Positions 2,521 through 24,774 are shown, numbered from the stretch's first letter. The stretch: 64,000 nucleotides of DNA from Ignavibacteriales bacterium (GCA_016186715.1 JACPLA010000021.1:640-64639); one strand, 5' to 3'. The notes: generated by a model not told the origin, from the letters alone. A program made the numbers and translations.

Positions 2521-2967
2521 GTGCTCAATCAGGGCTTTATTGCCTTTTTCCATATTCGACTTTCAGCCCCAAACCCATCAAAACTGCCTACTGTTCTGAA
2601 CACGATTGGCGACCATATCCGGAAGCGAAGAACGGAGCTTGAACTGCTGCAAAAGGACGTAGCGGGGTTAGTCGGGGTCTATAAGACAACGGTCTACGAC
2701 TGGGAACGGGGTTATACGAAGCCACGCCACAGATACCTTCCCAAGGTTATTGAATTCCTGGGTTATGATCCGGCTCCCGCGGAGCCGAGGACGCTGGGAG
2801 AGAAATTGCTGAAGTATCGGAAGGACCGCGGGATAACTCAGAAGGAGCTTGCCCGGCGCATTGGGATTGACCCAACGACGTTGAGCAGGTTGGAAAAAGG
2901 CAAAGGAAATCGCAACTTTCGAAATGTAAAGGAGAAAGCAGAGAGCTTCCTAAGAAAACATTCCTGA
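2521..2967 (+). CDS. tandem-HTH XRE-family transcriptional regulator, paralog A of a 3-copy family
   Basis: Two HTH_XRE-like modules (LGDHIRKRR...TTVYDWERG and LGEKLLKYRKDRGITQKELARRIGIDPTTLSRLE). The true start is uncertain because the 5' part is a conserved non-coding leader. Confidence 0.7.
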   Translation: MLNQGFIAFFHIRLSAPNPSKLPTVLNTIGDHIRKRRTELELLQKDVAGLVGVYKTTVYDWERGYTKPRHRYLPKVIEFLGYDPAPAEPRTLGEKLLKYRKDRGITQKELARRIGIDPTTLSRLEKGKGNRNFRNVKEKAESFLRKHS

Positions 2968-3033
2968 GAAAACAAAGAGGCGAACGACCCACCTACTAGC
3001 CGTTCGCCCATTGCAATAGCCAAACACACCATC

Positions 3034-3444
3034 CTACTTTGTGAGAGCCATCTTCATTACCTTTGTGAATTGCTTTCCGCTCTGACCCGTCGCAACGATG
3101 CGATAGAAGTACACACCGCTTCCCACCTTGCCTCCAGCGGCGTCTGTCGCATTCCATGTCAGTCTCTGGTAGCCGGCAGAATACTCCCGCTCGACAAGTC
3201 TGACAATTTCACGACCCAAAACGTCGAGGACCGTGACACTCACGAATGACGGCTCGGGGAGCGCAAACGAAATCTGCGTTTCAGGATTGAAGGGATTGGG
3301 AAAATTCTGACTTACTTGAACCTCCTTCGGAATTACAATAACTATTTCCTCATCAGCATGTCTTTCCACGGGTTCACCCTCTACAAACGCGACGTTGCTG
3401 TACGCAGAGACCAAACATCGTGGCCGAATCTCTACGCTGGCCAT
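3034..3444 (-). pseudogene. remnant of a T9SS-secreted protein: C-terminal sorting domain only
   Basis: 136-aa ORF consisting almost entirely of a Por/T9SS C-terminal domain (NFPNPFNPETQISFALPEPSFVSVTVLDVLGREI...YFYRIVATG). No functional passenger domain remains. Confidence 0.5.
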
Positions 3445-3640
3445 GGTCGTATCGACTTGAGGTGATCAGATTCGGAAGCAACGCCCTGACCAGAATCTCT
3501 TCTAAATAAAGACGTGGCGATACTGCTGGGATTTGATACATTGACAGATTACAACTGGGAGCGCAACTTTAGACGGCCTACACTCAGGACTACACGTATC
3601 TTCCCGCATTCCTTGAGCCGGGAAGCCTTGGAAGGGAAAT

Positions 3641-3820
3641 TATGTTTTACCCCCTTCTTCGCGGGGTGAGCCAAAAGGGACTAGCGGGTAAACTCAACAT
3701 TGATCCTAGTACCTTGGCGCGGTTGGAACGAGATGAAGGAAAACCGAGTTGCAAACTGAAAGAAAAGTTTATTGAGTTCTTTAAGAAAAGCCGCCTATGC
3801 AACGAGCGGATTGAAGAATA
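3641..3820 (+). pseudogene. 59-aa fragment matching the second HTH module of the tandem-HTH XRE family
   Basis: Translation MFYPLLRGVSQKGLAGKLNIDPSTLARLERDEGK... aligns with GITQKELARRIGIDPTTLSRLEKGKG of paralog A. The first HTH module is missing. Confidence 0.5.
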
Positions 3821-3897
3821 ACCAGAAAAAGGAGACCTGCAGAACTTTTGTGTGTCTGTAGCAGCAGGGGTAGGAAACGCGACTCGTGCATGCCAAG

Positions 3898-4773
3898 CTA
3901 GGAAAGGCTCCTGGATTGAGCATCAGATGCACACTCCTCGACGACTTTGTGTATGTGAGCTTGAACGGTTTGTGATTTAGACGCTTGCGATTCTGTCATC
4001 TCATGGATTGGCTGACCAGATCCACCGCGACGCACCGCGATGATTTCACTCATAACACTGAGTGCTATTTCTTCGGGTGTTAAGGCACCGAGATCAAGTC
4101 CTGCCGGCGTCCTGACACACGAAAGCCCCGAAGCAGGTACCCCGGCATCCGCGACGTAATCGAGTACGAGTTTTGCACGTTTCTTGCTTGCAATGAGGGC
4201 GACGTATGCAGCGTTGCCTTCGAGTGCGAGCTTGAGTGAAAGATGATCCTGCTTATGCTGCGTTGCAATGACGACGTAGGATTGACTGTCGATCTTTGTC
4301 TCACCGAACGATCCCTGAAATAGTTTGTCTGCTGTGGGGAAAGCTTCCGGCATTGCCGCAGGGCTATTCACCGTGACAGTGAAGTTCATTATTTTGCCGA
4401 TTGCCGCAATCGTCTCAGCAATTTTTCCGTGACCAATAATCACAAGTTTAGGTTTCGGCAAAATCGGTTCAATATAGACTTGCATAGTCCCTCCACATGG
4501 CATGCCGACGCCGAGAACCTCGTCGGTCATATCGATGGATATCATTCGCGTATTACCATCTTTGATGCTTTGTGCAGCCTCATAGCGCACAGTGCTTTCC
4601 GCACATCCCCCGCCAACCCAGCCATAGAGAAGCCGCTCGTCGGTGTCGATGATTGCTTTTGATCCCGGCTTCGCAGAGGATGAACCCTGGATATGCACAA
4701 CCGTCGCCACTGCGAATGGTTTTTCCGTCTTGCTCAGCTCAAAGAGCTTTTCAAAAAATTCCTTTGACATCAC
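3898..4773 (-). CDS. coxF: XdhC/CoxF-family molybdoenzyme maturation chaperone
   Basis: XdhC_CoxI N-terminal domain (FAVATVVHIQGSSSAKPGSKAII...WVGGGCAE) plus a Rossmann C-terminal domain. It lies inside the cox cluster. Confidence 0.8.
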   Translation of the reverse strand: MMSKEFFEKLFELSKTEKPFAVATVVHIQGSSSAKPGSKAIIDTDERLLYGWVGGGCAESTVRYEAAQSIKDGNTRMISIDMTDEVLGVGMPCGGTMQVYIEPILPKPKLVIIGHGKIAETIAAIGKIMNFTVTVNSPAAMPEAFPTADKLFQGSFGETKIDSQSYVVIATQHKQDHLSLKLALEGNAAYVALIASKKRAKLVLDYVADAGVPASGLSCVRTPAGLDLGALTPEEIALSVMSEIIAVRRGGSGQPIHEMTESQASKSQTVQAHIHKVVEECASDAQSRSLS

Positions 4774-4781
4774 TCATCCTC

Positions 4782-5078
4782 CTATCGAAGGAAAACGTCG
4801 ATTCCAAAATAGGGTAAGATCACAAATGCGAGAGTCACAGCGCAGCTTCCCAAGAAAAATACTTTATTAAACACAGTACCCCTGGCTCGAAAAGTCAAAT
4901 AGAATGAAATACCGAATGAGATCACCCCAGCGGCAAGTAGGATGTGACGATAAGGACTGAGGATCCACACAAGACTTGTTGAACCGAGACCGAACAGGGA
5001 ATAGAAAAAGGGAAGTGCACAACAAGGTCGTGAAAGAAACCCAAAGATGATTCCCGTGATAGTCGTCAGATTCTTCAA
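4782..5078 (-). CDS. small 2-TM membrane protein with vicinal Cys pair, MerF/MerT-like
   Basis: 98 aa. TM1 carries a CCALPF motif, as in MerT/MerF CCxxP. It is followed by LSPYRH and a second TM. Confidence 0.45.
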   Translation of the reverse strand: MKNLTTITGIIFGFLSRPCCALPFFYSLFGLGSTSLVWILSPYRHILLAAGVISFGISFYLTFRARGTVFNKVFFLGSCAVTLAFVILPYFGIDVFLR

Positions 5079-5094
5079 TTGCGGACTCCTTCCT

Positions 5095-5648
5095 TCATCC
5101 TAGTTCCCTCGTTTCCTGTTCATGTTGCCGGCGTATATTCACGATCTCGGCAAGGATACTGAGTGCAATTTCTTCAGGGGTGGATGCATAAATCTCCAAA
5201 CCAGCCGGCGATCTGACGCGTTTCAATTCTTCGTCGGACACACCGCCTGAACGTAGATGCTGAATCATTTCTGCACCACGTTTCTTACTCCCCAGTACCC
5301 CAATGTACCTTGCCTTTGTTTCAAGTGCTTGCGCCAGAGCATCTTCATCGTATTTGCCGCGACTCGCGATGACGATATACGACTCAAGTGAGACATCTGC
5401 TTTCCTCAAATCCAACTCCTGGATGGTGTCATCCACCTCCATGTCATCTTCTGAAAGAAACGGATCAATAACGGTGACGTGGAATTTGAGCACTTCCCTA
5501 GCTTTGCAAGCGAGGTCGCAACCGTATCACCTCCAATGACCACGAGCCTGGCGACATGTTCAGACGTCAAGACTGGATTCCTTGATGGAGGAAAATCTTT
5601 TGAAGTCATCCGCAGTGTCGATATCAACGAGAATGCTGGCGTCAGCAA
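5095..5648 (-). pseudogene. XdhC-like Rossmann-domain-only gene, interrupted by a frameshift near 5490
   Basis: Two overlapping frames. One (5406-5648) encodes LVVIGGDTVATSLAKLGK. The other (5095-5493) continues with HVTVIDP...GVLGSKKR...SPAGLEI. It overlaps the 3' end of mocA. Confidence 0.45.
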
Positions 5649-6234
5649 GGTTCACTGTGTGGATTTTTTTCGGATGGAGGCCGAAGAGAGATCGACAGCC
5701 AATGTCACCCGAGATTTGCATCATCTCGCCAAACAGCGAGCGATCAACTAGTACCGGATTCCCTCGAAATCCCTTATAGACGGGAAGAATGATCGGAGCT
5801 TTCTCTCGACGATATTCATCGGTCAATTGATTGATAATTGAAGGATTGAGAAAAGGCTGATCAGCCAACACGATCAATGCGGCCTCTGAGTCGGGTGCGA
5901 GAGACTGGAGACCGGCCTTGATCGACGTGCTCATTCCTTGCGCAAATACATCGTTGACGACGACTCTTGTTCGTTGGGCTCCACTATTCAGAGTAATCGC
6001 TTTCAGAATTTTTTCAGACTGATAACCGAGGACAAGGATTATCTCGCTCACACTCGAATCAGCCACCGTACGTATTGTGTGTTCCAGTAACGTGCAATTC
6101 CCTACTTTCATCAATTGCTTGAGGCTTCCCATACGCTTCGACATTCCAGCTGCGAGAATTATCGCCGAGACGAATGGTCGATTGACCGTCTCAATTCTTT
6201 GTGCAGTATGTTCTCGAGTTTCGAGCATGTTCAT
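5560..6234 (-). CDS. mocA: MocA/MobA-like molybdenum cofactor nucleotidyltransferase
   Basis: N-terminal ILAAGMSKRMG nucleotide-binding loop and the MobA-like NTP_transferase pattern. Confidence 0.75.
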   Translation of the reverse strand: MNMLETREHTAQRIETVNRPFVSAIILAAGMSKRMGSLKQLMKVGNCTLLEHTIRTVADSSVSEIILVLGYQSEKILKAITLNSGAQRTRVVVNDVFAQGMSTSIKAGLQSLAPDSEAALIVLADQPFLNPSIINQLTDEYRREKAPIILPVYKGFRGNPVLVDRSLFGEMMQISGDIGCRSLFGLHPKKIHTVNLADASILVDIDTADDFKRFSSIKESSLDV

Positions 6235-7250
6235 CCACCAAGTTGAAACATTTCTGCCCTTGTTGCATGAGCACCTGCTTCAAGAAGTTGAGCGCGCTCT
6301 TCAGAATATCGATCGGTTCTGTTGCTCCAAATCGATGCGATCAATTCCTTGATGCTCTCGTCGCTCGCTCCGGTTCTCAGATGAGTCTTGAGATCGTGTC
6401 CCTGACTTGCAAACAAGCACGTATAGAATTTTCCTTCTGCCGATAGTCTGATCCTTGCGCAATCTCCACAAAAAGGTTTTGTCACTGATGCGATGACTCC
6501 TATTTCGCCCTTCCCGTCCGTGTATCGATACCGCAGCGCGACCTCGCTCGGATAACTTCGCTCCAAAGGTTCGAGCGGCAATTCTTTGTCGATACGTCGG
6601 ATGATCTCATCAGCAGAAACGACATCATCCATCCTCCAACCGTTCAGAGTTCCTACGTCCATGTACTCAATAAATCGTAGAACATGTCCCCGTCGTTTGA
6701 AAAATCTCGCGAGGTCAACCAACGTATGGCCATTGACCCCTTTTTGAACAACAACGTTGATTTTGAGAGGCGAGAAACCGACCCTCGCAGCCGTTTCAAT
6801 TCCTTGGAGGACGCGCTCAGTCGTGAATCCTTGTCCGTTCATCTTGCCGAAGACTTCATCATCGAGTGAATGCAGACTCACGGTTATTCTATGGAGTCCT
6901 GCATCCTTGAGCGCCTGCGCTTTTTCAGTTAACAGGTATCCATTCGTTGTGAGAGCGAGGTCTGTCATTCCCTTGATCCCGGCCAGTTGGTAGACCAACA
7001 CCTCTATGTCATTTCTAAGCAAAGGCTCGCCACCCGTGAGACGGACCTTGGAGACCCCAAGATCAACAAAGATCTTTGCAACGCGAACGATCTCCTCGAA
7101 TGTCAGGATTTCGGTTTTCGGAAGAAACTCGTATCGCTCGCCAAACGTTTCAGCAGGCATGCAAAAAGGACACCGAAAATTACATCGGTCCGTGACCGAG
7201 ACCCGAAGGTCGTTGAGCGGTCTGCCGAATTTATCTTTGAGTTCAGACAT
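6231..7250 (-). CDS. moaA: GTP 3',8-cyclase MoaA (radical SAM)
   Basis: CNFRCPFC radical-SAM motif, MoaA-type length (339 aa) and a C-terminal Cys cluster. Confidence 0.9.
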   Translation of the reverse strand: MSELKDKFGRPLNDLRVSVTDRCNFRCPFCMPAETFGERYEFLPKTEILTFEEIVRVAKIFVDLGVSKVRLTGGEPLLRNDIEVLVYQLAGIKGMTDLALTTNGYLLTEKAQALKDAGLHRITVSLHSLDDEVFGKMNGQGFTTERVLQGIETAARVGFSPLKINVVVQKGVNGHTLVDLARFFKRRGHVLRFIEYMDVGTLNGWRMDDVVSADEIIRRIDKELPLEPLERSYPSEVALRYRYTDGKGEIGVIASVTKPFCGDCARIRLSAEGKFYTCLFASQGHDLKTHLRTGASDESIKELIASIWSNRTDRYSEERAQLLEAGAHATRAEMFQLGG

Positions 7251-7257
7251 GTTTTTT

Positions 7258-8256
7258 TTAACGATGTTTCATCTTGATGTATTGTTCGGGGTCCTTTTCA
7301 AAGGTAGACTTGCAATGGGCGGAACAGAAATAAAAAGTCCTTCCATTCAGCTTTGAAATATGCTTCGCTGTAGCAACGTTCACCATCATCCTACAAATAG
7401 GGTCTTCTTGCTCGGCCGGTTCGTTCGCCCGGTGTTTTGCAGTCTCTGGGCTTGCGTGAGCTGCAGCTGATCTGGTAACTTGAATTATCTCTGCAAGAAT
7501 GCTTACCGCAATCTCTCCGGGAGCCGCCGCTTTGATGTCCAAACCCGCCGGGACCTTCACATGCTTCAACTGGGAGGAGGAGAAACCTCGTCCCTGCAAA
7601 TACTCTGAAACCGCCTCCCATTTCTTCTTGCTGGCAACAAACGCAACGTACGCAGCGTCAAGGCTCAGCGCCTGCTCGAGCGCTCCCTCGTCATCTTCTC
7701 CTTGCGTTGCAACGACAATGGCAGAACGGGTAGATGATCTCTCCTCAAACGCCCTCATAAGCCCTACACCATGCCCCGACTGTTGGAAAATATCCACGTC
7801 TGCAAAATCTTCTCGACTTTCTTCCGGGGCCACAACTGCAACGCGATACGAGAGGGTCTTCGCGAGCGTTGCGAGCGTTTGGGCAACGGCTGACCGTCCG
7901 AAGATGAGCAGTTGTACTTTCGAAAGAATCGGTTCAATGAAAATATCCAAGGTTCCTCCACTGTGACACATCATCGTGTAACCGGTGATGCCATCGGAAG
8001 GCTCGGCGCCAACTGTCGGGCTGACACGAACAAACCGCGGGTTGCCGTCCTCGAGAGCTTTCATCGCTTCTTTGATCACGATCGGTTGAGCGCATCCCCC
8101 GCCAACCCAGCCGGATAACTTCCCATCACGGGAGATGAGAGCTCTGTCGCCCGGCTTTGCTGAGGTCGGACGTTCACACCGCACGACGGTGGCAACCGCG
8201 AATGGTTCATTCTTTTCCCGGAGTCGACTAACGAGTTTTAAGAAATCGTCAAACAT
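7258..8256 (-). CDS. XdhC-family chaperone fused to a C-terminal YHS/TRASH metal-binding domain
   Basis: XdhC_CoxI and Rossmann domains, followed by ...ICRMMVNVATAKHISKLNGRTFYFCSAHCKSTFEKDP (YHS-type). Confidence 0.8.
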   Translation of the reverse strand: MFDDFLKLVSRLREKNEPFAVATVVRCERPTSAKPGDRALISRDGKLSGWVGGGCAQPIVIKEAMKALEDGNPRFVRVSPTVGAEPSDGITGYTMMCHSGGTLDIFIEPILSKVQLLIFGRSAVAQTLATLAKTLSYRVAVVAPEESREDFADVDIFQQSGHGVGLMRAFEERSSTRSAIVVATQGEDDEGALEQALSLDAAYVAFVASKKKWEAVSEYLQGRGFSSSQLKHVKVPAGLDIKAAAPGEIAVSILAEIIQVTRSAAAHASPETAKHRANEPAEQEDPICRMMVNVATAKHISKLNGRTFYFCSAHCKSTFEKDPEQYIKMKHR

Positions 8257-8300
8257 AATTCAATCTTCACGCACTTCTGTGTTTTCATTTCTTTTTATCG

Positions 8301-9470
8301 TTAAGATAAATGATGCTCGAGTTGGAGAAGACTCTCCAAACTGTGCGCGGGCGCGAAAACGTCCGCGAAGGGGAGTGCAGCACTCATCCCGCGTGTGATT
8401 GGCTGGTACTCAGCAAGTCCAAGAAGAGGATTGAGCCAGATGAGCTTTCGGGCCCGACGCTTGATTGTTTGGAGTTGTTCTGTCAGCGCTTCAGGTTCAC
8501 CGGTGTCCCAGCCATCACTCATGATAATGACCAAAGAATTGCGCGAACGCAGTTTCCGAGCATGCAGCGTATTGAATTCCGCCAAACATTTACCGATGCG
8601 CGTGCCCCCGGACCAGCTCTCGACGTTCTGCGCAACCATCTGTAAAGCGTTGGAGAGTTGATGCGTTCGAAGTGCGCCTGAAATATCGGTTAGCCGCGTG
8701 CTGAAAACGAACGAATCGACGCGCTCAAAATACTGCTGCAGTGCATAGACGAATCGCAGGAGGAACAAGCTGTAGAGGTCCATCGATCCGCTGACATCTA
8801 GAAGCACGACCAGATTGATCTTTTGACGTTTTCTTTCCTTATAGTGCAGCGTCATCGGTTCTCCGCCGCGACTGAGGTTGGAACGAATCGTCCGCCTGAA
8901 ATCCAGACGGCCTCGTTCTCCATACTGTCGATACCTTCGCGTCAAGCGCTTGCTCATCTGTCGCCACAGCCGCAGGCAAAGTTGTTCCAGGAGAGGAAGG
9001 TCGGAAGCCGCCACCTCTGAGAAATCCATCTTTCTTAATCGCTCTTCTGCACTTGCTCCGGTGGTTGCCGTGAGATCGCCTTCCTCCTGGGACTTGCTGG
9101 CCTGCTCCAAAGCTCGGCGGTGTTCGTCTCCAATCACGGGCACTTCAATCCGAGAAGAAAGTACTTCCCTCTGCAGGTGGATTGTTTCAGTGGAGTTTCC
9201 CCAAAACTGTTCAAACAGCTGATCAAACTGTTCGTATTGTTCCCTTGAAGAGCAGAGGAGTGCGCGAAGCGAAGATTGAAATGCTTCGCGATCGGTAATC
9301 GTAACGAAGCGAGCAACTTCCAGGGCATCGATGGTTTCTTGTAAACCGACTTGAAAACTGTTTGCTCGCAAGAATCGGCAGAACTGAACGATCGTCTTGG
9401 TCACGATACCGTCGGAAAAGCCAGCACTTGCACGCACGGTCATGCTCTTTTGAGTCGGTTTCTTCATCAC
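8301..9470 (-). CDS. coxE: VWA-domain protein CoxE
   Basis: MIDAS motif LVVLLDVSGSMD. It sits immediately downstream of the MoxR ATPase within the cox cluster. Confidence 0.8.
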   Translation of the reverse strand: MMKKPTQKSMTVRASAGFSDGIVTKTIVQFCRFLRANSFQVGLQETIDALEVARFVTITDREAFQSSLRALLCSSREQYEQFDQLFEQFWGNSTETIHLQREVLSSRIEVPVIGDEHRRALEQASKSQEEGDLTATTGASAEERLRKMDFSEVAASDLPLLEQLCLRLWRQMSKRLTRRYRQYGERGRLDFRRTIRSNLSRGGEPMTLHYKERKRQKINLVVLLDVSGSMDLYSLFLLRFVYALQQYFERVDSFVFSTRLTDISGALRTHQLSNALQMVAQNVESWSGGTRIGKCLAEFNTLHARKLRSRNSLVIIMSDGWDTGEPEALTEQLQTIKRRARKLIWLNPLLGLAEYQPITRGMSAALPFADVFAPAHSLESLLQLEHHLS

Positions 9471-9500
9471 CTCATCGTCCTCGGTTCGCGTTTCAACATC

Positions 9501-10424
9501 TTAACTTTCGACTTGCGACAGGATGCTTGGAATATTTTCAGCCTTGAGTTTCGAAATATCTTCGTTCGATTTCAGAATACATCCCAGTGTTTCTTCCACG
9601 GTCATCTCGTCCAGCTTGGTTTTCTCAAGCGAGAGAAGGGCAGAAGTCCAATCAAGAGTCTCTGCAATGCCCGGCGGCTTCGAAAGATTTTTACCCCGCA
9701 CTGCTTGAATGAACTGGACGATTTGATTCGCCAACTCTCGTCCGATCTGCGGAAGTTTCTTGTGAACGATGTGCAGCTCCTTCTCAAGGCTTGGATAATC
9801 AATCCAATGATAGAGACAGCGCCTTCTCAAGGCGTCGCTTAACTCCCTTGTTCGATTAGAGGTGAGCACAACGTAGGGTACATGGGTCGCCTTGATTGTT
9901 CCCATTTCGGGGATTGTGATCTGAAAGTCGGAAAGAAGCTCCAGCAGAAATGCTTCGAACTCTTCATCCGCCCGGTCAATTTCGTCGATCAACAACACCG
10001 GCGAAGCATTTGTCGCACTAATGGCTCTCAGGAGCGGTCGCTCCAGAAGGAATTTAGCGCTGAAAATGTGTTTCTCTTTCTCTGCGATACTTGCTTCAGC
10101 ATGTTCCTGAATCTTGATGCTCAGTAACTGCTTCTGGTAATTCCATTCATAGACCGCCGAGTTGACATCCAGTCCCTCGTAACATTGGAGGCGAATGAGT
10201 TCCGTTCCGAGAAAAGAGGCTAACACATTCGCTGTCTCCGTCTTTCCGACGCCAGCGTGTCCTTCTATGAGCAGTGGTCTTTGAAGCTTGAGGAGAAGGT
10301 AGATGGCGGTGGCAAGAGGACGGTCGGCAACGTACTTTCGCTGTTCAAAGCCGCGCATCAAATTGTCAATATCGGAGAGGTGGTTCATTGGATTAAGGAA
10401 TTCTTTAGGCATCGAATTATTCAA
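9501..10424 (-). CDS. coxD: MoxR-type AAA+ ATPase CoxD
   Basis: Walker A GHAGVGKT and the MoxR architecture, 307 aa. Confidence 0.85.
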   Translation of the reverse strand: MNNSMPKEFLNPMNHLSDIDNLMRGFEQRKYVADRPLATAIYLLLKLQRPLLIEGHAGVGKTETANVLASFLGTELIRLQCYEGLDVNSAVYEWNYQKQLLSIKIQEHAEASIAEKEKHIFSAKFLLERPLLRAISATNASPVLLIDEIDRADEEFEAFLLELLSDFQITIPEMGTIKATHVPYVVLTSNRTRELSDALRRRCLYHWIDYPSLEKELHIVHKKLPQIGRELANQIVQFIQAVRGKNLSKPPGIAETLDWTSALLSLEKTKLDEMTVEETLGCILKSNEDISKLKAENIPSILSQVES

Positions 10425-10426
10425 AC

Positions 10427-14023: not shown

Positions 14024-14026
14024 GAT

Positions 14027-16586: not shown

Positions 16587-17122
16587 TCACACAGAATAGA
16601 AGCTTCTATCCAGACTACTGTATTGAATGGCTTCGCTCAAATGCTCAGTCCTGATCTGATCACTTCCCACAAGGTCGGCAATGGTGCGTGAGACTTTCAA
16701 AATTCGGTCATAAGCCCTCGCCGAGAGGCCCAGCCGATTCATCGCCGTTTTCAGCAACTCTGCCCCCGCCGTATCGATCTGACAGAATTCCTTGATTTCC
16801 TTCGATTCCATGTCGGCGTTGCAATACAGGTCTTTTCGTTTTTCGAATCTGCCAGTTTGAACCCCCTCGCACGAACAACACGCTCACGTATGGCCGAGGA
16901 ATTCTCGCCCGAGCGCTTCGAGGAAAGCTCCGTGTATTTGACAGCAGGGACCTCGACGTGAATATCGATTCTGTCCAGCAATGGACCTGAAATCTTGCCA
17001 ACGTATTTCTGGATTTGCATCGGAGTGCACATGCATTCCTGATTCGGGTTTCCGTAATTGCCGCACGGACAGGGGTTCATTGCCTTTTTGCCATATTCGA
17101 CTTTCAGCGCCAAAACCATCAA
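16587..17122 (-). pseudogene. comM: comM/yifB (Mg-chelatase-like ATPase) C-terminal remnant, 5'-truncated and frameshifted
   Basis: Frames encode [46 protein letters not shown] and ...LSARAYDRILKVSRTIADLVGSDQIRTEHLSEAIQYSSLDR. The AAA+ N-terminal two-thirds is absent. Homology ends exactly where the HTH-paralog leader begins, near 17080. Confidence 0.75.
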
Positions 17123-17505
17123 AACTGCCTACTGTTCTGAACACTATCGGGGATCACATCAGAAAGCGACGGCTTGAGCTTGGACTTCTCCAGCGTGAGG
17201 TTGCAGACCGTCTCTCTGTCAAAGTCGACACCATTCTCAACTGGGAACACAACAGAACGGCACCAACGCTCCGATGCCTTCCAGGGGTGATCGCGTTCCT
17301 CGGTTACGATCCATCGGATGACAACCCAAGAACACTGGGCGAAAAGCTGATGAAATATGGGAAAAGTTGTGGCATGAGTCAAAAAGAAATGGCGAGCCGG
17401 ATTGGTATTGACGCAACAACGTTGAGCAGGTTGGAGAGAGATAAGGGCAGATGCTTTGATACGGTACTCAAGAAAGTTCATGACTTCTTGAACACGCATG
17501 AGTAA
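16981..17505 (+). CDS. tandem-HTH XRE-family regulator, paralog B
   Basis: Shares the leader (ttgcctttttgccatattcgactttcagcgccaaaaccatcaaaactgcctactgttctgaac) and the protein core with paralog A. The real start is probably downstream of 17100. Confidence 0.65.
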
Positions 17506-17568: not shown

Positions 17569-18168
17569 TTAATTACGCAACACTTCGGTCACTTGTGCTT
17601 GCCATGCTTTGATCACTTCTTCTGTGGTCTTAATTTCAGCGCCATAATTTGTCTTGAGATATTCGAGCCCCTCATTGTGGGCTTTTTCGTCGAATGCTTC
17701 AACGCCATCCTGCAAAATAACCAGATTGTAGCCTCTGAAAAATGCATCGGCAGAAGTATGGCGATCACAGATGTTTGTATGTAAGCCAGTGACATACAGC
17801 TTTGTCACGGCAAGGCTTCGCAGGAGTTGGTCGAGACCAGTCTCGAAAAATGCTGAGTAGGTGCGTTTTTCAAACTGATAATCTGGGGGTCCTGGTCTTA
17901 ACTCGGGAATCACCTCCGCGCCCGCGGATCCCTTCATGGCATGCTCACCCCATACACGAAGTTCAAAATCCTCCCTTAAATGCGCATCTCCAGCATAAAT
18001 CACAGGAACACCTTTCTTCCGAGCTTCTGCCAGAAATTTCATGAGATTGGGAATAATCCTATCTGCCCGTTCGCAGCGCAACTTTCCCGTGACAAAATCA
18101 TTGAGCATATCAATAACGAGAACCGCCTCGGGTTTTCTTGCCATAGGTCTTTCGCTCCTTTCTTTCAC
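17569..18168 (-). CDS. isochorismatase-family cysteine hydrolase (nicotinamidase-like)
   Basis: VLVIDMLNDF ... catalytic Cys in LYVTGLHTNICD. Confidence 0.8.
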   Translation of the reverse strand: MKERSERPMARKPEAVLVIDMLNDFVTGKLRCERADRIIPNLMKFLAEARKKGVPVIYAGDAHLREDFELRVWGEHAMKGSAGAEVIPELRPGPPDYQFEKRTYSAFFETGLDQLLRSLAVTKLYVTGLHTNICDRHTSADAFFRGYNLVILQDGVEAFDEKAHNEGLEYLKTNYGAEIKTTEEVIKAWQAQVTEVLRN

Positions 18169-18231
18169 GCTATCAACTGTTGTGATCCAAGGTAGTCAAA
18201 GTGGGAAGGTAAATCAAGGACCCTGCTGTAA

Positions 18232-20487
18232 CTACTCGTGGTAAAATAATTGATCAAAAGCGTACCTCACGCTTAGGTACGCGCCTCTTCCTCTCGTTGT
18301 AAAACCGTTTATTTCGGAGTACTTGGTGTCAAAGACATTCTCTATTCGAGCGCTCACCGAAAGATGTTCATCAACGTGATATCGCTGCGACAGGTCCAGA
18401 AGCGCATAGTCCGCCACCGGGGTACTTGCTAGAGCGCCATAAGGGCCGAGCTTTGAACTATAAAAGATATCGCTTCGCGCACCGACATATCTCATATCAA
18501 TCCTGAGAGCAAGGCGTTCAGTTGGCATATATATCAGACTCAGGTTTGCAGTGTTAGGTCTACGAACCAATCCTAACGTTTCCACTTCTTTTGTGATGAA
18601 TGCCCCATTGCTATACACCTGGACGTGGTTTCCGTCGGTCTGTGGAGTAGCAATGCTATTAGGGTTGTACGTTAATTTCCCGCTTACCAAGCTCAAGTTG
18701 CCTGAAAAAAACAAATGATCGGTTATCATGGAAGTGATCGTAAACTCGATGCCGTTGGTCGTTTGCTTACCCACGTTCAAATATGTATCTCCCCTGAAGT
18801 CGTCCCGAACCCAACTGTTGCCCAGCGTATCTATACCGATATTCTTATCCCAGAGGTACACGTTCTCAATGGCATCCTCAACGATGGTGTTAAAGTAAGC
18901 AACAGACAGACTCATACCCTTGCCAAGTTTTTGCTTAAAGCCGATCTCGTATGAAGCTGAGTTTTCCGGTTTCAGCTTCCTATTCCCCCTTGTGATGCCG
19001 GAAATATAGTTCTTGTCGGGTGCATACAGTTGGTAAAGCGATGGAGCGTTGAAGCCGGTTGAGTAGGAGGCATACAAGAGCGCATCGCCTCCGATTCTCA
19101 GCGATGGATTGATCTCGTAAGTAATATTTACGCCATAGGCGCTGTGGTCATTCAAACGCGCACCTAGTCCGATTGAAAACGGACTGAACATTTCATCCAC
19201 CAAGCTGCCATTCACGTTAACGTGCGCGAAGATGTTTCTGGTCGATGAGTTCAAATTCAATGTATCAAGATCTGATCTCGACTCATAGACACCGAAGGCG
19301 CTTCTCGAATAGAAATACGTCTTTGAGGTCATCGTTTCCGTGTACAGACCGCCACCCAATATACCTTCGAAATTTTTCAGTTTCAGGTTTCCCTGGATCT
19401 CATTGGTCAATGTTGTTCCCTTCCAGGTGCCATCGAAATACGTGTGGTCGGTCGTTCCCATGTTGTCCACAATCGAAGAATCATCGACTGCAACCCTTTT
19501 CATATCAGAATAACCACCAAGATACTTGATGCTGAGCTTATCACTAAGTTTGTAGGAAGCACCATAGGTAAATAGGTTCCTTCTAAAATTCAGCGTGTAG
19601 TTATCGTCATCCCTATACGCACTTTTGTCGATATCGGTCCTGTGAGTGGTATTCTTGTATGAAGCATAAACGTCGAGCCGGTCGTTTCTGAAGCCAACTT
19701 TGCCGACGACGTCTCTCTTATGGAAGCCATCTTTATCCCGATTTTTGAAGATGGCCAGATTCGTCACCGTATCTACTGTGGCGTCTAACCCCCTGACATT
19801 GGAATTGTTGATCTCCGTGTTGACATAAAGACCTGCGGGATCGGTATAATTCAAAAAGAGATTTGCAGAGAACGCTGAAGTTCCTTCGCCGAAGGTTCCC
19901 GTTTTCAACTCTACATCGGTATTGAATCCTGGCTTTCTGTTCTTCTCCGTAGCAATGTTCACGGCGCCACCGATAGCTGAGGAACCATAGAGTGTGCTAT
20001 GAGAACCTCTCACAATCTCGATGCGGTCAGCGGCTGCAAACGATAGTTCAGACAAATCGAGCGCATTATTCACACCTGAGGGATCCGTGATGCGGACTTC
20101 ATCGATCATAATCGTCGTTTGATTGCTTGCCGCGCCCCGGGTAAACATGCTTTGGAGCATTCCCGGATTCTGTCCGGTACCGACGACGTACAGACCTTCC
20201 TGTTGTGAGAGTAATTCCGCAACGCTGGCATAAGTGGAATTCTTCATCTGCTCTTTCGTAAGTAGCGTAATGCTTCTTCCCACTTCCATAGGATTCCTCT
20301 CACTCCGGGTGGCGGTTACGACTATTTCCTGAAGTTGATAAACTTTAACGGTATCCGCACTGGTTGAATCGTTAACAGCCTCGTTGGCAGACATCAACAC
20401 TGAGCCGGCACGAAATTCAGATAGGCCTTGTGCTCCTGCGCGAGCGGCAAGCAACCCCATTACGGAAAGTATAGCAATGCTCTTCAT
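18232..20487 (-). CDS. TonB-dependent outer-membrane receptor
   Basis: 751 aa with a signal peptide, a plug domain (IEIVRGSHSTLYGSSAIGGAVNI), a long beta-barrel and a C-terminal aromatic residue. Confidence 0.85.
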   Translation of the reverse strand: MKSIAILSVMGLLAARAGAQGLSEFRAGSVLMSANEAVNDSTSADTVKVYQLQEIVVTATRSERNPMEVGRSITLLTKEQMKNSTYASVAELLSQQEGLYVVGTGQNPGMLQSMFTRGAASNQTTIMIDEVRITDPSGVNNALDLSELSFAAADRIEIVRGSHSTLYGSSAIGGAVNIATEKNRKPGFNTDVELKTGTFGEGTSAFSANLFLNYTDPAGLYVNTEINNSNVRGLDATVDTVTNLAIFKNRDKDGFHKRDVVGKVGFRNDRLDVYASYKNTTHRTDIDKSAYRDDDNYTLNFRRNLFTYGASYKLSDKLSIKYLGGYSDMKRVAVDDSSIVDNMGTTDHTYFDGTWKGTTLTNEIQGNLKLKNFEGILGGGLYTETMTSKTYFYSRSAFGVYESRSDLDTLNLNSSTRNIFAHVNVNGSLVDEMFSPFSIGLGARLNDHSAYGVNITYEINPSLRIGGDALLYASYSTGFNAPSLYQLYAPDKNYISGITRGNRKLKPENSASYEIGFKQKLGKGMSLSVAYFNTIVEDAIENVYLWDKNIGIDTLGNSWVRDDFRGDTYLNVGKQTTNGIEFTITSMITDHLFFSGNLSLVSGKLTYNPNSIATPQTDGNHVQVYSNGAFITKEVETLGLVRRPNTANLSLIYMPTERLALRIDMRYVGARSDIFYSSKLGPYGALASTPVADYALLDLSQRYHVDEHLSVSARIENVFDTKYSEINGFTTRGRGAYLSVRYAFDQLFYHE

Positions 20488-20514
20488 AATTACTCCTTGC
20501 TGAGTGATTCGGAA

Positions 20515-21198
20515 TTATTTATTAACAAGAGATAGTTTTTTCACTTTGAGATACATCATCGAATCCTTTGTTTCCTTTGAGAAGTCGTTGAGGACGATTG
20601 TACGTCTGAAGAGCGGAAAGTCCAGCACAGTGGTATGGTATTCGCCATTTTCGCCACAAAGATCCATTCCTGTTTCTTCGCTTATTTCGTACAACCGCTC
20701 AGCGGCTTTCGTATCAAGGTCACAGCCTGGCCAACTGTCAGTCAACAAAGGCCGTTTCACACACGAAAAAATCACTTTGAAGTTATTCGTTATCAGTTTT
20801 TCAAGAAGTTCCTTTCGATTCCGTTTCCATAGCGGCGTCACGACTTCAATCCCGACAAAGGCTGCACATTCTTTTACCCAATTTGGATGAGCACGTATCT
20901 CATCGATATCACCTGTGATAACAACTGAGACCCCACGCTGCTCTTTCAAGGACCGAAGGGCTGATTTGTATACTTCGTTGAACGGTTGGGTAATTTCGAT
21001 GGTCCGATGGAGAATCTGGAGAGCCTCTGCCTGATATTTCATTACATGCACAGGGTGAGCGAGAAATCGCGGATTTGAGGGCGCGAAGGTAATCAGCCCT
21101 TTGATCTCATAGCCGAGGCTTTGGGCTTCATACAGTGCCAGACAGGAATCTTTACCGCCGGTCCATAATACAACGGCACTGCCTAAGAGCTGATTCAC
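20515..21198 (-). CDS. DUF71/MJ0570/Dph6-like PP-loop ATP pyrophosphatase, copy 2
   Basis: PP-loop WTGGKDS and the GENGEYHTTV motif. It overlaps the upstream paralog by 4 nt. Confidence 0.75.
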   Translation of the reverse strand: MNQLLGSAVVLWTGGKDSCLALYEAQSLGYEIKGLITFAPSNPRFLAHPVHVMKYQAEALQILHRTIEITQPFNEVYKSALRSLKEQRGVSVVITGDIDEIRAHPNWVKECAAFVGIEVVTPLWKRNRKELLEKLITNNFKVIFSCVKRPLLTDSWPGCDLDTKAAERLYEISEETGMDLCGENGEYHTTVLDFPLFRRTIVLNDFSKETKDSMMYLKVKKLSLVNK

Positions 21199-21956
21199 AC
21201 GCTTCTCCCTGACTCAGCAATGGGGATTAAATCGCAATACCAAAAGCCATTGTCAAAAGGCTTAGAGCCGCTGCTATTGCAGGCATATTGAGAATTGCCG
21301 TCCTGTTGTGTTGGTAGATATTTTCGATGTACGATCTCGCCGACTTCGAATTCTATCGGCTTTTTGAAAAGAGGGCCGTCGTAGACAAATGAATGAAATT
21401 CCCCGTACTCCCCGCAGGGATCGACATTGTCAGGGAGATCCTTGATGAAAGAATCATCAATAGCACGTCCCACGAAGGACTTATCTAGGAATCTATCGTT
21501 CACACACACGGTGGTTGCCTTAAACCCCAGCTCAATGAACTCTCGCATCAACTGATGAGTTGAAATCTTCCAGAGCGGAAAGACGGCGTTCAGGTTTAGC
21601 TCGGCGAGTTTGTTTTCCCTGTACTTGCGGAGATCTTCCAGGAAAATATCGCCAAAGACACAGACTTCCGTGCCGCTATTCTTCAGCCTTACCAGCGTTT
21701 CCTTCATGATAGTTTCATACGTCTTCATATCGGGCATCTCTGGGATGAGCATTTTGACCAGGGGTATTCCAATGCTTGAAGCCTGTTCATCAAGCAGCTC
21801 AACTCTGACCCCGTGCATAGAAATCCGACGGTACTGCTCGTTAACACTGGTGAGCAACCAAGAAACAGAGTGTTCTCCAAGTGTTAAGACCTTATGTAGG
21901 CACAGAGCGGAATCCTTACCGCCGCTCCAATTGAATACTGCTTTCTGCTTTTGCAC
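21195..21956 (-). CDS. DUF71/MJ0570/Dph6-like PP-loop ATP pyrophosphatase, copy 1
   Basis: PP-loop NWSGGKDS and the GEYGEFHSFV motif. Confidence 0.75.
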   Translation of the reverse strand: MQKQKAVFNWSGGKDSALCLHKVLTLGEHSVSWLLTSVNEQYRRISMHGVRVELLDEQASSIGIPLVKMLIPEMPDMKTYETIMKETLVRLKNSGTEVCVFGDIFLEDLRKYRENKLAELNLNAVFPLWKISTHQLMREFIELGFKATTVCVNDRFLDKSFVGRAIDDSFIKDLPDNVDPCGEYGEFHSFVYDGPLFKKPIEFEVGEIVHRKYLPTQQDGNSQYACNSSGSKPFDNGFWYCDLIPIAESGRSV

Positions 21957-22035
21957 AATTCAGACCGACGTATTGTAATCGTAGCTCCCGCATTCGATGA
22001 CAGGCGAGCTTATTTTGAAGCAGTTATTTGTTCAA

Positions 22036-22956
22036 TCACATTTTCATCCATCCTGATCGACAATGCTTCGCTGGAAACAGATCAGGGTGAAATACCTCAG
22101 CAAGTATTTCCAGAGAGTCTACTAATCTTGGGCCGGGGCGATTGAAATAGTGACTCCCTTCACCGATATACACCTCATGCTCTCGCACTGCCTTGAGTGC
22201 ATTCCATCCGCGTTTCTTTTCCAAAAAGGGCATATCCTTTAATGACCGCTGAATTGAAAATCCGCAGGGTGCAATGAGGATCTTATCCGGATCCTGTAGG
22301 ATGAGGTCCTCAAAACCGATCCAGCGCTTACCGTCATCAAGAAAGACATTCGAACCGCCAGCCATCTCTATCAATGGTATCATCCAGTGTCCTGCGACCA
22401 TAATCGGTTCGATCCATTCGATATGTGCGACCCGAGGGTGATGGGAGCATTCTTTTGTCTTGGACTGCACATCTTCAAATGATGTCTTCATCTTGCTGAC
22501 TACTTCGTTGCCTTTTCGTTGAACATCGAGATGACCTGAGACAAGCACAATGTTTTCCAATACCTGTTCCAGGCTCTTTGGATTCAAGTCTATGACAGTA
22601 ATATTGTCTTGGTGAAGACATTCATTGAGTGCCTCTCTCAATTCATCTGTGCTCACAGCACAGACCGCACATTGTGACTGCGTAATAATGTGCGTCGGTT
22701 CGAGTGCCCTGATCCTTTCCACATTGACCCTGTAGATTGATAGAGCCTCCCGCAGTATTACGCTCACTTCCCTGCTGATCTCAGGACTCGTTCCGCTTGA
22801 CCGGTACTTCGGCTGGCTGCAAACAGGAAGCTGCTCAATACCAGGAGGATAATCGCATTCATGCGAACGCCCGACAAGCCGATCCTTCAAGCCGAGCGAA
22901 CAAACAATTTCTGTTGCGCTGGGTAGCAACGAGATGATGCGCTGTTGTGGCGCCAA
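22036..22956 (-). CDS. BtuF/TroA-like (class III) substrate-binding-fold protein without a signal peptide
   Basis: IISLLPSATEIVCSLGL...GRSHEC matches BtuF-type cobalamin/siderophore binding proteins. Only 15 nt separate the start from the upstream gene, which leaves no room for a leader peptide. Confidence 0.65.
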   Translation of the reverse strand: MAPQQRIISLLPSATEIVCSLGLKDRLVGRSHECDYPPGIEQLPVCSQPKYRSSGTSPEISREVSVILREALSIYRVNVERIRALEPTHIITQSQCAVCAVSTDELREALNECLHQDNITVIDLNPKSLEQVLENIVLVSGHLDVQRKGNEVVSKMKTSFEDVQSKTKECSHHPRVAHIEWIEPIMVAGHWMIPLIEMAGGSNVFLDDGKRWIGFEDLILQDPDKILIAPCGFSIQRSLKDMPFLEKKRGWNALKAVREHEVYIGEGSHYFNRPGPRLVDSLEILAEVFHPDLFPAKHCRSGWMKM

Positions 22957-22971
22957 GGCCCGTTTCCTGAC

Positions 22972-23511
22972 TTAGATCCGGGATTCCGCCAAGGCCGGAA
23001 TTTTATGTTGTGCGAACTCAAATGAGCCGAAGAGCAGGCCGGAGTAGAAAAGAGCGCTCAACACAGTATTGCTAAAGAATGGTATCGCTGCGATGTAACA
23101 TTGAGCTAGTCCTGTCATGTTCATCGGATACAAGTGTCCTCCAGCCCATACCGCGAAATTCGTTATGATAAAGAATACGATTGAACCAGCCACCGAGGCG
23201 GCAATAATGTTGACGATTTTCAGACGATGCCGTAAGAGAAATCCCATCGTTGTCATCAAAGAGAAACATCCATAAATCACCAAACGCATCGCCGTGAAAA
23301 ACTCGTAGCCCTTAAGAAAGGCCAAACCAATATCGCTTAACACCATCGCAGCAAGGGGAACAACGTAGGCTGTTCTCCTGTCGGTAAAATAAGATCCTCC
23401 GAATAAGGCAAGAGCAATCATCGGCGTAAAGTTTGGGGGGTGTGGAATGAGTCGTGAAGCTACGGCCGCCAGCACCATTGAGATTAGGACCGTAATGCGG
23501 CTCTTAAGCAT
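22972..23511 (-). CDS. small polytopic membrane protein, possibly an ECF-type S-component
   Basis: 179 aa with 5 to 6 hydrophobic helices. It has a good RBS (aaaggagtaatcttATG) and is the first gene of the minus-strand operon. Confidence 0.45.
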   Translation of the reverse strand: MLKSRITVLISMVLAAVASRLIPHPPNFTPMIALALFGGSYFTDRRTAYVVPLAAMVLSDIGLAFLKGYEFFTAMRLVIYGCFSLMTTMGFLLRHRLKIVNIIAASVAGSIVFFIITNFAVWAGGHLYPMNMTGLAQCYIAAIPFFSNTVLSALFYSGLLFGSFEFAQHKIPALAESRI

Positions 23512-23608
23512 AAGATTACTCCTTTCTTGAATGATGAAGGATTTTGTAAGTTGGGGGGACTTTAATCACTTGCCTAGAATACGTTTGTGAATTCAGTGTT
23601 TTCGGCAA

Positions 23609-23641
23609 ACAAAAAAACCCCAACCTTCGAAAAGATTGGGG
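23609..23641 (-). terminator. rho-independent terminator on the minus strand (ccccaatcttttcgaaggttgggg followed by a T7 run)
   Basis: Perfect 8-bp GC-capped stem plus a T-run when read on the minus strand. It lies upstream of the uptake-operon promoter. Confidence 0.45.
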
Positions 23642-24240
23642 TTCAAGAAGTCAAGAAAAAGAAATATTCTCACTCGGGCGAACACCTTCCCTCGAAGGTT
23701 TCAAGCTGCTACGACTTGGCAGGTCTCCTGGCTTTCTCGATCCTTGATCGTCTTCCCATCCCGACTGTTGTCGGCACAGTGACGTTCGTGATCAAAGAGG
23801 AAATCTCACATTGGGTGAGTCGAGATCACAGTTGCGGGGCAGCTTCCGAATGTATCACGGAATTCCCTTTTCATCCCGGGCATTGCTTGCCGGGACACCA
23901 AATCATTCCATGTGAAAGAACGGTAATTCTTCGTCGCACGCCTATGTACAAAGATTCTCGACAAATGTCAAGAGATTGCAAGAGGGACAACCAAGATGGT
24001 GATGAACGGTCAGCAAGACCTCTTCTCGATGAGTGGTAGGGTACAAGCAATCAAGGGTCCCTAGTCTTTCTCACTTCGTGGACGAAATCCAAAGCGGGCT
24101 TTTTCAAAAGGCTCAAGACTGCATTTTCATACGTCGCGGTCCCTTTGCAGAACTACCCGAGTTATTTCAGGGGCCTTTTGGGAAACCATGCATGATATAG
24201 CATTCTCTCTTCAGGTTCTCAGCGGCGTTAACCAACAGGG

Positions 24241-24774
24241 TTGCGTTGCCAGAGTACGGGTCGGGTCGTCCTTACGGCCAAACGGCCAAAATCATCAGAA
24301 TTCCTTAAATCGCTCATTTCTCTGGGTGATCACATCAGAGCAAGGCGGCTTGAATTGAAGTTTTTGCAGAAGGACGTGGCTCGGGTTATTGGAGTCGATG
24401 AGACGACTGTCTACAATTGGGAGCGGGGGTATACAAGTCCGACGCTTAGGTATGTGCCGAGGATTCTGGATTTCCTGGGTTATGATCCGGCTCCCGCGGA
24501 GCCGAGGACGCTGGGAGAGAAATTGCTGAAGTATCGGAAGGACCGCGGGATAACTCAGAAGGAGCTTGCCCGGCGCATTGGGATTGACCCAACGACGCTG
24601 AGCAGGTTGGAGAGGACCAGCAGCAAGCGGGTTTTCCGAAGTGTTTTGCTGAAGGTTGAGGACTCTCTTCGCAAATGCTTCTGTGCGATCCTCGAGATCA
24701 TACTGTTTGCCCATAGAGCCCCCCTTTGGGAAGCACGAAATATCAAATCCGAAATACGAAACAAAAACAGATAA
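24241..24774 (+). CDS. tandem-HTH XRE-family regulator, paralog C; its 3' end reads through into unrelated sequence
   Basis: The core [47 protein letters not shown] is identical to paralog A at protein level and almost identical at DNA level. The C-terminal approximately 40 aa are not HTH-like. Confidence 0.65.
   Translation: MRCQSTGRVVLTAKRPKSSEFLKSLISLGDHIRARRLELKFLQKDVARVIGVDETTVYNWERGYTSPTLRYVPRILDFLGYDPAPAEPRTLGEKLLKYRKDRGITQKELARRIGIDPTTLSRLERTSSKRVFRSVLLKVEDSLRKCFCAILEIILFAHRAPLWEARNIKSEIRNKNR
24655..24714 (-). pseudogene. 20-codon stub of a four-helix-bundle (23S-IVS/Avd-like) protein gene
   Basis: MGKQYDLEDRTEAFAKRVLN compares with MKYDLEERLTNFAVRII of the intact copy at 41575. Nucleotide identity is high (ta[c/t]gatctcgagga). 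Confidence 0.35.

Follow-up and report, generated by a model that had tools for sequence, protein, structure and literature searches.

A tandem helix-turn-helix regulator gene at the left end of probable comM-directed integrative elements, apparently stacked as a decayed array in an Ignavibacteriales contig

We examined a stretch of 64,000 nucleotides (hereafter the window) from a contig of a metagenome-assembled genome (MAG), labelled Ignavibacteriales bacterium at NCBI (GCA_016186715.1, JACPLA010000021.1:640-64639), in which a gene for a tandem helix-turn-helix (HTH) regulator of the Cro/C1 (XRE) type recurs. Open reading frame (ORF) listing, translation, and Pfam place four copies in the window, all on the plus strand: copy A (P0001; 2521-2967, annotated start GTG 2521), copy B (P0011; 17080-17505, 141 aa, in an ORF open from 16981), copy C (24241-24774, with a type-2 leader), and copy D (3496-3822), a 5'-truncated and frameshifted pseudogene that keeps residues ~14-45 and 55-103 in two frames and is recovered at 3496-3743 with copy B as tblastn query. 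Two stretches of each full copy match HTH_3, with scores of 77.7 (A), 62.2 (B), and 84.6 bits (C) against a cut-off of 23; in copy C the family stop codon is gone, giving a C-terminal extension of ~35 aa. An earlier reading of this DNA, made from the sequence only (the sequence-only reading), had listed three full copies and one fragment on the plus strand, a near-identical stretch of ~140 nt in the otherwise diverged copies A and C, and a ~70-nt block common to A and B. All three hold, the fragment being pseudogene D from 3496 and not just from 3641. The repeat finder aligns A and C at 79% identity across 300 nt (122-nt core at 93%), and 139 of 141 nt are identical between 2755-2895 and 24472-24612. 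This identity, far beyond chance, stands beside flanks whose synonymous sites are saturated (proportion of synonymous differences, pS, 0.8-0.98), a contrast indicative of a recent patch of gene conversion rather than of gradual divergence. For A and B the finder pairs 2545-2651 with 17086-17192 (83% over 107 nt); counted by hand on the alignment, 2530-2601 and 17070-17142 are ~93% identical with one 1-nt gap, a shared block of ~73 nt at the 5' end of both genes.

The regulator gene begins no more than ~10 nt from a fixed junction, in which ..CA is followed at the boundary by GGGTTGCGTTGCC.., and across that junction lies part of comM/yifB, the gene being cut at the Cys codon of the motif A-M-N-P-C-P-C-G; a comM piece always forms the region upstream of the XRE gene. 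In the window, copy B lies directly against a minus-strand comM/yifB 3' pseudogene (16590-17083), approximately the last 166 codons with one frameshift, which begins at the A-M-N-P-C-P-C-G codons. To the left of copy A stands a comM-derived antisense stub of class S3 (2491-2531, minus strand; *LSTAH*NPKQECI in the comM frame), and to the left of copy C a sense-strand stub of class S5 (24209-24235, plus strand), in which F-R-F-S-A-A-L-T is weakly matched to F-M-L-I-A-A-M-N of the comM 5' side. A second comM 3' remnant (24941-25040, minus strand) retains the last ~30 codons (LSGAIQ / SLDRNFYTV*) and is truncated on its 5' side. Downstream of a comM 3' copy is situated a hairpin followed by a T-rich stretch (24731-24856, minus strand), read from the sequence and absent from the terminator-scan output, which is homologous to 9349-9481 of the related locus L002.

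The same junction recurs far beyond this contig. It was present in the first two homologue loci fetched, L001 and L002, and in the latter, a 433-kb Bacteroidota contig, it occurs twice, 6.6 kb apart. A genome scan with the trimmed regulator alignment, one genome per species, returned 36 loci, and in 28 of them the regulator adjoins an opposite-strand comM 3' fragment that starts at residue 1-4 of one and the same 166-residue segment. Among 82 further regulator copies from a metagenome scan, a recognisable comM 3' fragment adjoins the regulator in 41, equivalent to 41 of the 76 lying away from contig edges. Taken together, the comM 3'-XRE junction was seen in at least nine phyla and in about 70 of the ~115 related copies, and the family itself is larger: a profile search of 1.84 billion cluster representatives yielded 467 members at E <= 1e-30. 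Hosts in the genome scan include Bacteroidota/Ignavibacteriota, Kryptoniota, Acidobacteriota, Gemmatimonadota, Myxococcota, Planctomycetota, Desulfobacterota (among them a cultured isolate, Geomonas diazotrophica Red69), Bacillota (Desulforudis), Omnitrophota, and Tectomicrobia. Arrays of 2-4 junctions are found in L002, L007, L014, L024, L031, and L032. These observations bear on a mundane explanation, in which the copies are ordinary chromosomal paralogues regulating adjacent operons, with repeats produced by duplication and conversion only. That every copy sits beside a different operon, and that A and C have undergone conversion, would suit it; yet ~70 related copies meet comM fragments at one nucleotide irrespective of their neighbours, the regulator genes are divergent from the module that precedes them and convergent with the one that follows, and A is without its start, D is a pseudogene, and C is without its stop, so that we regard simple paralogy as highly improbable. 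The sequence-only reading had itself proposed that copies elsewhere lacking accessory DNA would denote a housekeeping paralogue set; this refuting condition did not hold, and in the related loci the accessory genes were found to be unrelated from locus to locus (restriction-modification, kinase, RHS, type IX secretion system (T9SS) proteins, subtilase, and a cyclic-oligonucleotide-based antiphage signalling system, CBASS).

Where a long comM fragment is missing, most copies have a short comM-derived stub instead, and the join falls at the same nucleotide. An antisense stub of ~42 nt, with the translation *SGRDHGNPKQECI, precedes copy A of the window and the copies in L064, L067, L071, L079, L083, L090, L077, and L088; a sense stub of ~30 nt from the comM 5' side (..NFMLIAA..) is found in L004, L062, L074, L082, L112, L115, L117, L120, L126, and others, and weakly at window C. 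In L086 and L092 a genuine comM 5' part leads into the terminus. Counted by eye, the automatic stub classifier being imperfect, ~11 stubs are antisense, ~15 sense, and ~5 unclassified, and a third conserved type accounts for 4. We had considered that A and C might occupy random secondary sites, an idea rejected once their left flanks proved to be these recurrent comM-derived stubs. In high-GC lineages (e.g. L015, L030, L036) the junction is an inverted repeat, such as CGCAGGGG-CA-CCCCTGCG.

Complete units clarify what happens to the target gene. The units in L008 (5.6 kb), L030 (3.7 kb), and L035 (4.1 kb) are bounded at the left by a displaced comM 3' fragment and at the right by an intact comM of 509-515 aa; each brings a spare comM 3' end, by which the gene is kept whole. 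The intact L008 protein is YifB (TIGR00368, 655.8 bits; cut-off 362), and the junction falls at residue 351 of 515, in the NPCPCG codons. The duplicated comM segment (~0.5 kb) extends exactly from the stop codon to the junction: fragment and intact gene run identically as far as ..GCCGCAnGGnCA (at the Cys codon of N-P-C) and diverge beyond it, where one copy continues into XRE-terminus sequence and the other into comM 5' sequence. Given these flanks and the repeated junctions of the arrays, the segments can be read as direct repeats of an attachment site inside a conserved target gene. According to Pfam, the complete small units hold cargo only (Ser/Thr kinase, metallophosphoesterase, subtilase, T9SS proteins). 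The two comM 3' copies of single-element loci are 95.3% (L008) and 99.6% (L035) identical, while those within arrays share 72-86% of nucleotides, with synonymous divergence (dS) of ~1 in L002 or more in L024 and a nonsynonymous to synonymous ratio (dN/dS) of ~0.03. Because dS is ~1 at so low a dN/dS, we conclude that the array copies diverged as working genes in different donors and were brought together later.

The element end itself deserves a closer look, since the sequence-only reading had taken the leader shared by A and B as conserved in DNA but not in frame, and hence as non-coding. For ~55 of its ~73 nt this is not so: from 'catattcga' on, A and B share their frame and both encode HIRLSAP(N/K)..., an N-terminal segment also conserved among homologues. 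The two are out of register only over the first ~20 nt, where A is minus one base (tttttgcc to tttttcc); this deletion throws the usual TTG start out of frame, and copy A is probably crippled or starts at GTG 2521. For the first ~15 nt, on the other hand, the claim survives across the family. The consensus CAGGGTTGCGTTGCC is read as QGCVA, GLRC, or RVAL among homologues, and in L008 a 2-nt indel changes the frame once more with the terminus motif retained; because the same motif is thus read in all three frames, it must be conserved as DNA. The terminus is CAGGGCTTTATTGCC in copy A (2530-2544, plus strand), the 1-nt deletion lying just downstream; CAGGGGTTCATTGCC in copy B (17070-17084, plus strand), where it holds the TTG start; and CAGGGTTGCGTTGCC in copy C (24236-24250, plus strand), identical to junctions in L002. 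In the B-type terminus the first 15 nt, CAGGGGTTCATTGCC, match the antisense of the comM codons A-M-N-P-C exactly; the other terminus types are a diverged copy of AMNPC, reading A-T-Q-P/G-C. The 'ATQPC' codons, which we had regarded as plain comM sequence, were reassigned to the element terminus, as a copy of AMNPC that is exact in B and otherwise diverged. In L040 (19580-19640), a G+C-rich, hairpin-forming insert of 28 nt, CGTCCGACCCGACGGTCGTCCGGGCGGG, interrupts an otherwise conserved terminus motif. Scans for sigma-70 promoters and terminators around the three junctions of the window were uninformative, the host probably having other promoter types.

Overall, we suggest that these loci probably belong to a family of integrative elements specific to comM, with the regulator as left-end gene, and that the window holds a decayed tandem accretion of them. 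The attachment site would be one fixed position of comM/yifB, the Cys codon of A-M-N-P-C-P-C-G. Each unit would consist of the terminus with its XRE gene, then variable cargo, then a copy of the comM side of the site, either the full 0.5-kb comM 3' end or a stub of 30-45 nt. A circular form would carry the comM piece joined to the XRE terminus as its attachment site (attP). Upon recombination with comM, the resident 3' end would move beside the XRE gene and the spare 3' end of the element would join the resident 5' part, by which comM would be rebuilt and an attB-like site regenerated; this site could admit the next element, leading to tandem arrays. The leader would then be the element terminus, combining an arm of the recombination site with the first codons of the regulator. 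Both alternatives offered by the sequence-only reading, accretion at a hotspot and elements each bearing the regulator at one end, are thereby supported: the hotspot is comM, which that reading had not recognised, any more than the comM pseudogene beside copy B; arrays of 2-4 units are common; and the junction with a comM 3' fragment is seen in 28 of 36 genome loci and 41 of 76 metagenome copies.

How the units are joined is the point at which the closest competitor must be weighed. The same elements could integrate by homologous (Campbell-type) recombination, with the 0.5-kb comM 3' copy as homology arm, a RuvC-like resolvase cutting the Holliday junction, and the fixed junction being the inherited edge of the arm. 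No integrase turned up near the copies, a RuvC-like resolvase and a second, weakly RuvC-like protein belong to a recurrent backbone described below, and the comM 3' copies of L008 and L035 are similar enough (95.3% and 99.6%) to serve RecA. Nonetheless, many copies end at the same nucleotide in stubs of 30-45 nt or in the sense 5'-side stub, too short for RecA and of the wrong geometry; the array copies, at dS ~1 and 72-86% nucleotide identity, are poor RecA substrates; junction and terminus motif are conserved in phyla whose comM is too diverged for homologous exchange; and the high-GC junctions show the dyad symmetry typical of a recombinase core. We thus consider integration by homology improbable, though the most serious of the competing explanations. 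Site-specific joining of comM-directed elements is favoured instead, because stub-bearing copies share the exact nucleotide, array copies of comM are poor RecA substrates, and the junction is constant across diverged phyla. The enzyme would act in trans, or would be an unrecognised protein of the Rep/RuvC-like/ATPase backbone.

Several observations weigh against this interpretation. Across ~126 loci, no recurrent tyrosine or serine recombinase or transposase was detected within ~10 kb of the copies by motif scan, clustering, or Pfam lists, and the integrase, excisionase, or relaxase that the sequence-only reading proposed to look for beside the copies was not found nearby. All-versus-all clustering of ORFs from ~46 loci gave as recurrent families the regulator, comM, the T9SS tail, two-component proteins, and one large ATPase, with no recombinase candidate; motif scans for tyrosine and serine recombinases returned none in the ~46 loci and two isolated, non-recurrent tyrosine-recombinase matches (L062, L125) in 80 metagenome loci; integrase, transposase, and relaxase were all absent from the precomputed Pfam lists of about 12 neighbourhoods. 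Because no recombinase was found near the copies, it is from junction anatomy only that we infer site-specific recombination. Furthermore, no circular form or same-population empty site was seen, and no convincing operator motif is common to the terminus and the upstream region of the backbone. As for the window, it has neither a complete unit nor an intact comM, the stub on the left of C resembles comM only weakly, and the window comes from a MAG contig, whose repeats could in principle mislead assembly. Finally, a 605-aa protein encoded at 25073-26890 (minus strand), without a Pfam family, is 76% identical to the product of a gene at L002 915-2741; in both genomes the gene lies near a comM 3' copy, its strand being the same but its position on opposite sides of the array, which the model leaves unexplained. 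Concerning assembly, one might propose that the contig is a chimera joined at repeated regulator genes, and its metagenomic origin and the 141-nt near-identical block speak for this. The architecture and its arrays are, however, repeated in dozens of independent assemblies, including contigs of 0.4-2.5 Mb and one isolate genome, and outside the 141-nt patch the copies are too different to collapse, so we give an artefact almost no credence.

About one-fifth of the long loci have a common backbone of Rep-, RuvC-like, and FtsK-HerA-like proteins. Its members are a Rep-like winged-helix protein (HTH_36, 222 aa) with a small HTH protein, a RuvC-like resolvase of 167 aa, a protein of ~175 aa with a faint RuvC match, two proteins of ~219 and 95 aa with no function assigned, and an FtsK/HerA/T4CP-like ATPase of 1010-1030 aa (DUF87, TrwB_AAD_bind; phrog_5156). 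The large ATPase (~1020 aa) matched DUF87/TrwB_AAD_bind, and TraD/VirD4 models around the P-loop only. In L001, L002, L011, L017, L024, L047, L071, L081, and L090/91 the module lies to the right of the regulator and converges on it, and in L008 a backbone fragment stands directly against the comM stop codon. It looks as if the backbone module were the self-mobile form and the XRE-plus-cargo units its decayed or dependent derivatives. Extension to the right via the Rep-like protein (10-kb flanks) showed the backbone and more cargo, with neither an integrase nor a right end. The Rep-like/RuvC-like/large-ATPase module is also widespread as an element backbone in its own right: matches to the Rep-like protein are labelled Bacteroidota, Acidobacteriota (Acidoferrales), Zixiibacteriota, Patescibacteria, and one Halobacteria archaeon, and the 10 kb around the module in L052 and L053 contain neither an XRE gene nor a comM piece. 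Phage origin of the regulator-bearing elements was rejected, IMG/VR yielding only three weak single-HTH matches, as was plasmid carriage, with zero tblastn matches in PLSDB.

A bolder version, which we put forward as a tentative and on balance unlikely proposal, is that movement is due to an undescribed recombination system, in which the tandem-HTH protein guides recombination to a dyad-symmetric comM site of ~80 bp, making an integron-like cassette platform that spans phyla. The enzyme in that case may be the RuvC-like resolvase with its weakly RuvC-like partner, an unannotated backbone protein, or one acting in trans.

The regulator itself has a simple architecture. In the AlphaFold2 model (pLDDT 89.9), a short linker connects two canonical Cro/C1 domains, and the ~22 N-terminal residues are disordered. 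Each half superposes on 434 Cro, P22 c2, SinR, and DdrO N-domains (target-normalised TM-score 0.7-0.8, root-mean-square deviation 1-2 A), and Foldseek returned single-domain matches only (434 Cro, P22 c2, SinR, DdrO, C-proteins), with no whole-chain match. With two HTH domains in one chain, a monomer can read two half-sites. We suggest a putative role as element repressor or immunity factor, or as an accessory factor binding the terminus. The family also includes giants with many tandem HTH repeats: P0232 (4162 aa, 32 matched stretches), P0235 (2332 aa, 15), and P0226 (1002 aa, 8).

Insertion in comM has precedents of other kinds. Tn6022/AbaR and Tsy use TnsF together with TnsABC or YRec and enter comM at its Walker B codons, leaving the gene split (Faure et al. 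2023, PMC10293859); Tsy includes a small HTH protein (PMC10293859), and integrase-bearing elements are known to inactivate yifB (PMC7192596). The likeness to Tn6022/AbaR and Tsy consists in the use of a conserved comM stretch coding for ATPase motifs as a broad-host landing site; the differences are the A-M-N-P-C-P-C-G site, a comM that is usually rebuilt, and the absence of TnsF, TnsABC, and YRec from annotated neighbourhoods. One could nevertheless imagine that the elements resemble transposons such as Tn6022 or Tsy, having a defined 'CA' end and a selector that targets comM. For this speaks comM as a proven target of Tn6022 and Tsy (PMC10293859), as well as the sharply defined XRE end, which also occurs outside comM. 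Against it, Pfam-annotated neighbourhoods lack TnsA/B/C, TniQ, TnsF, and YRec, a second, inverted end was not found, and Tn6022 and Tsy use the Walker B codons without duplication, whereas the present family uses the CPCG motif downstream of these, with a duplication of 0.5 kb; a transposon of this sort seems to us very unlikely. If comM-directed integration is correct, a gene known as the landing site of AbaR/Tn6022 and Tsy gains a second, different, and much more widespread use at another conserved motif, with comM usually repaired and the stacking of cargo unlimited. Our searches of the open-access literature turned up comM/yifB-targeting elements of other kinds and none of the present kind, which is not proof of novelty.

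By analogy, the overall logic appears closest to three classes of site-specific accretion, with an integron-like flavour added. The first is provided by ICESt1/ICESt3, integrative and conjugative elements (ICEs) of Streptococcus thermophilus, and the related cis-mobilizable elements (CIMEs), which accrete in tandem at the 3' end of fda. As there, units stack at an attachment (att) site inside a gene, the 3' end of the target recurs with each att copy, and many units are without recombination genes and would depend on a helper; here the target is comM, the repeated piece is 0.5 kb, many phyla are involved, no helper integrase was identified, and the tandem-HTH regulator is kept att-proximal in every unit, even the smallest. 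The second and third are e14 and phage 21, which integrate in icd, and elements at the 3' ends of tRNA and tmRNA genes, such as the ssrA islands of Dehalococcoides. These likewise bring in a replacement 3' end and leave the displaced original as a pseudogene fragment, with repeated entries leaving serial fragments; they encode an integrase beside att, of which none was found here, and compared with tRNA-site islands the segment replaced here is much longer. Integrons, for their part, comprise an IntI integrase with attI and cassettes bounded by attC. Promoter-proximal stacking of short units, imperfect symmetric sites, diverse cargo, and a majority of units without a recombinase are reminiscent of their arrays, but IntI and attC-type hairpin sites were not found, each unit has its own regulator, and the site derives from a protein gene. 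Regarding the regulator, ImmR (ICEBs1), SetR (SXT), and cI/Cro-type proteins are repressors of integrated elements. A Cro/C1-type HTH gene at the element extremity is common to all, the role in maintenance or immunity being putative here; the present protein differs in having two HTHs in one chain of ~140 aa, no oligomerisation or peptidase-sensitive domain, and a gene start at most ~10 nt from the crossover.

With the comM-directed element as guide, the window can be read as an array of four units. Unit 1 comprises the S3 stub (2491-2531), copy A, and a secreted-protein remnant (3034-3444, minus strand), a truncated gene of which only the T9SS sorting C-terminus (Por_Secre_tail / FlgD_ig) is left, with matches in L002, L004, L019, and L039; related elements repeatedly carry a secreted-protein gene that converges on the regulator. 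Unit 2 runs from pseudogene D (3496-3822) through a molybdenum (Mo) hydroxylase cluster (3898-15601, minus strand, by Pfam) of the CO-dehydrogenase / xanthine-dehydrogenase-like type, with XdhC, MobA-like, MoaA, CoxE, CoxD-like AAA, CoxG, and large, small, and FAD subunits, and a predicted membrane protein (15714-16430, minus strand) with a weak DUF2157 match, to the comM 3' pseudogene (16590-17083). Unit 3 consists of copy B, isochorismatase, and a riboswitch-controlled B12-uptake operon (17569-23917): by Pfam, 17569-23511 (minus strand) encodes isochorismatase, a TonB-dependent receptor, two Diphthami_syn_2 proteins, a periplasmic binding protein, and DUF6580, and it is headed by a cobalamin riboswitch (23701-23917, minus strand; RF00174, 91.4 bits), making it a probable cobalamin-uptake operon. 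Unit 4 is the sense stub (24209-24235) with copy C, the hairpin and T-rich stretch (24731-24856), and the comM 3' remnant (24941-25040). With a start missing from A and a stop from C, D reduced to a pseudogene, and frameshifts or truncations in the comM pieces, the array is clearly old and eroded. G+C content is lower in 1-25 kb than in the remainder of the window, where 27-64 kb is housekeeping (ApaG, SurE, PanB, LpxACD, BamA, UppS, ClpB, citrate synthase, and others) and includes neither an integrase nor an intact comM. Rfam and tRNA scans of the window gave the cobalamin riboswitch as sole match, with no tRNA attachment site.

The cargo recorded comprises metabolic clusters, vitamin-uptake operons, secreted proteins, toxins, restriction-modification, and CBASS, and many of the phyla with the family are poorly studied. 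An antisense or sense comM stub, then ..CA and, across the boundary, nnnnTGCGTTGCC, then a tandem-HTH gene could serve as a signature of accessory DNA in MAGs, and the lack of a recognisable integrase makes the family a concrete starting point in the search for a new recombinase or for a system dependent on a helper. Among the cargo, a CBASS-type module (SMODS cyclase, bacterial HORMA, Trip13-like AAA) is found at L049 1-1707 in a backbone-bearing element, and L001 has a type III restriction-modification system in the matching position.

Some further features of the window were recorded. At 14027-15601 (minus strand), a 524-aa open frame joins a complete TetR (TetR_N + TetR_C_33) to the Mo-hydroxylase FAD subunit (FAD_binding_5 + CO_deh_flav_C), either as a true fusion or as two genes without a stop between them. 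The two Diphthami_syn_2 (ATP-pyrophosphatase-like) genes are unusual partners in a B12-uptake operon. Left of copy A, the ORF at 1931-2455 (minus strand) contains a decayed response-regulator receiver piece, similar to the response regulator left of the L040 comM fragment; the DNA on this side may be eroded flank or cargo. Further right, at 41435-42061, a direct repeat of 45 nt (copies 98% identical and 539 nt apart) occurs together with several inverted repeats of 30-43 nt, upstream of two small tandem genes, the first from the 23S rRNA intervening-sequence protein family, and at 63203-63295 a 31-nt unit is present in three tandem copies, 81-87% identical.

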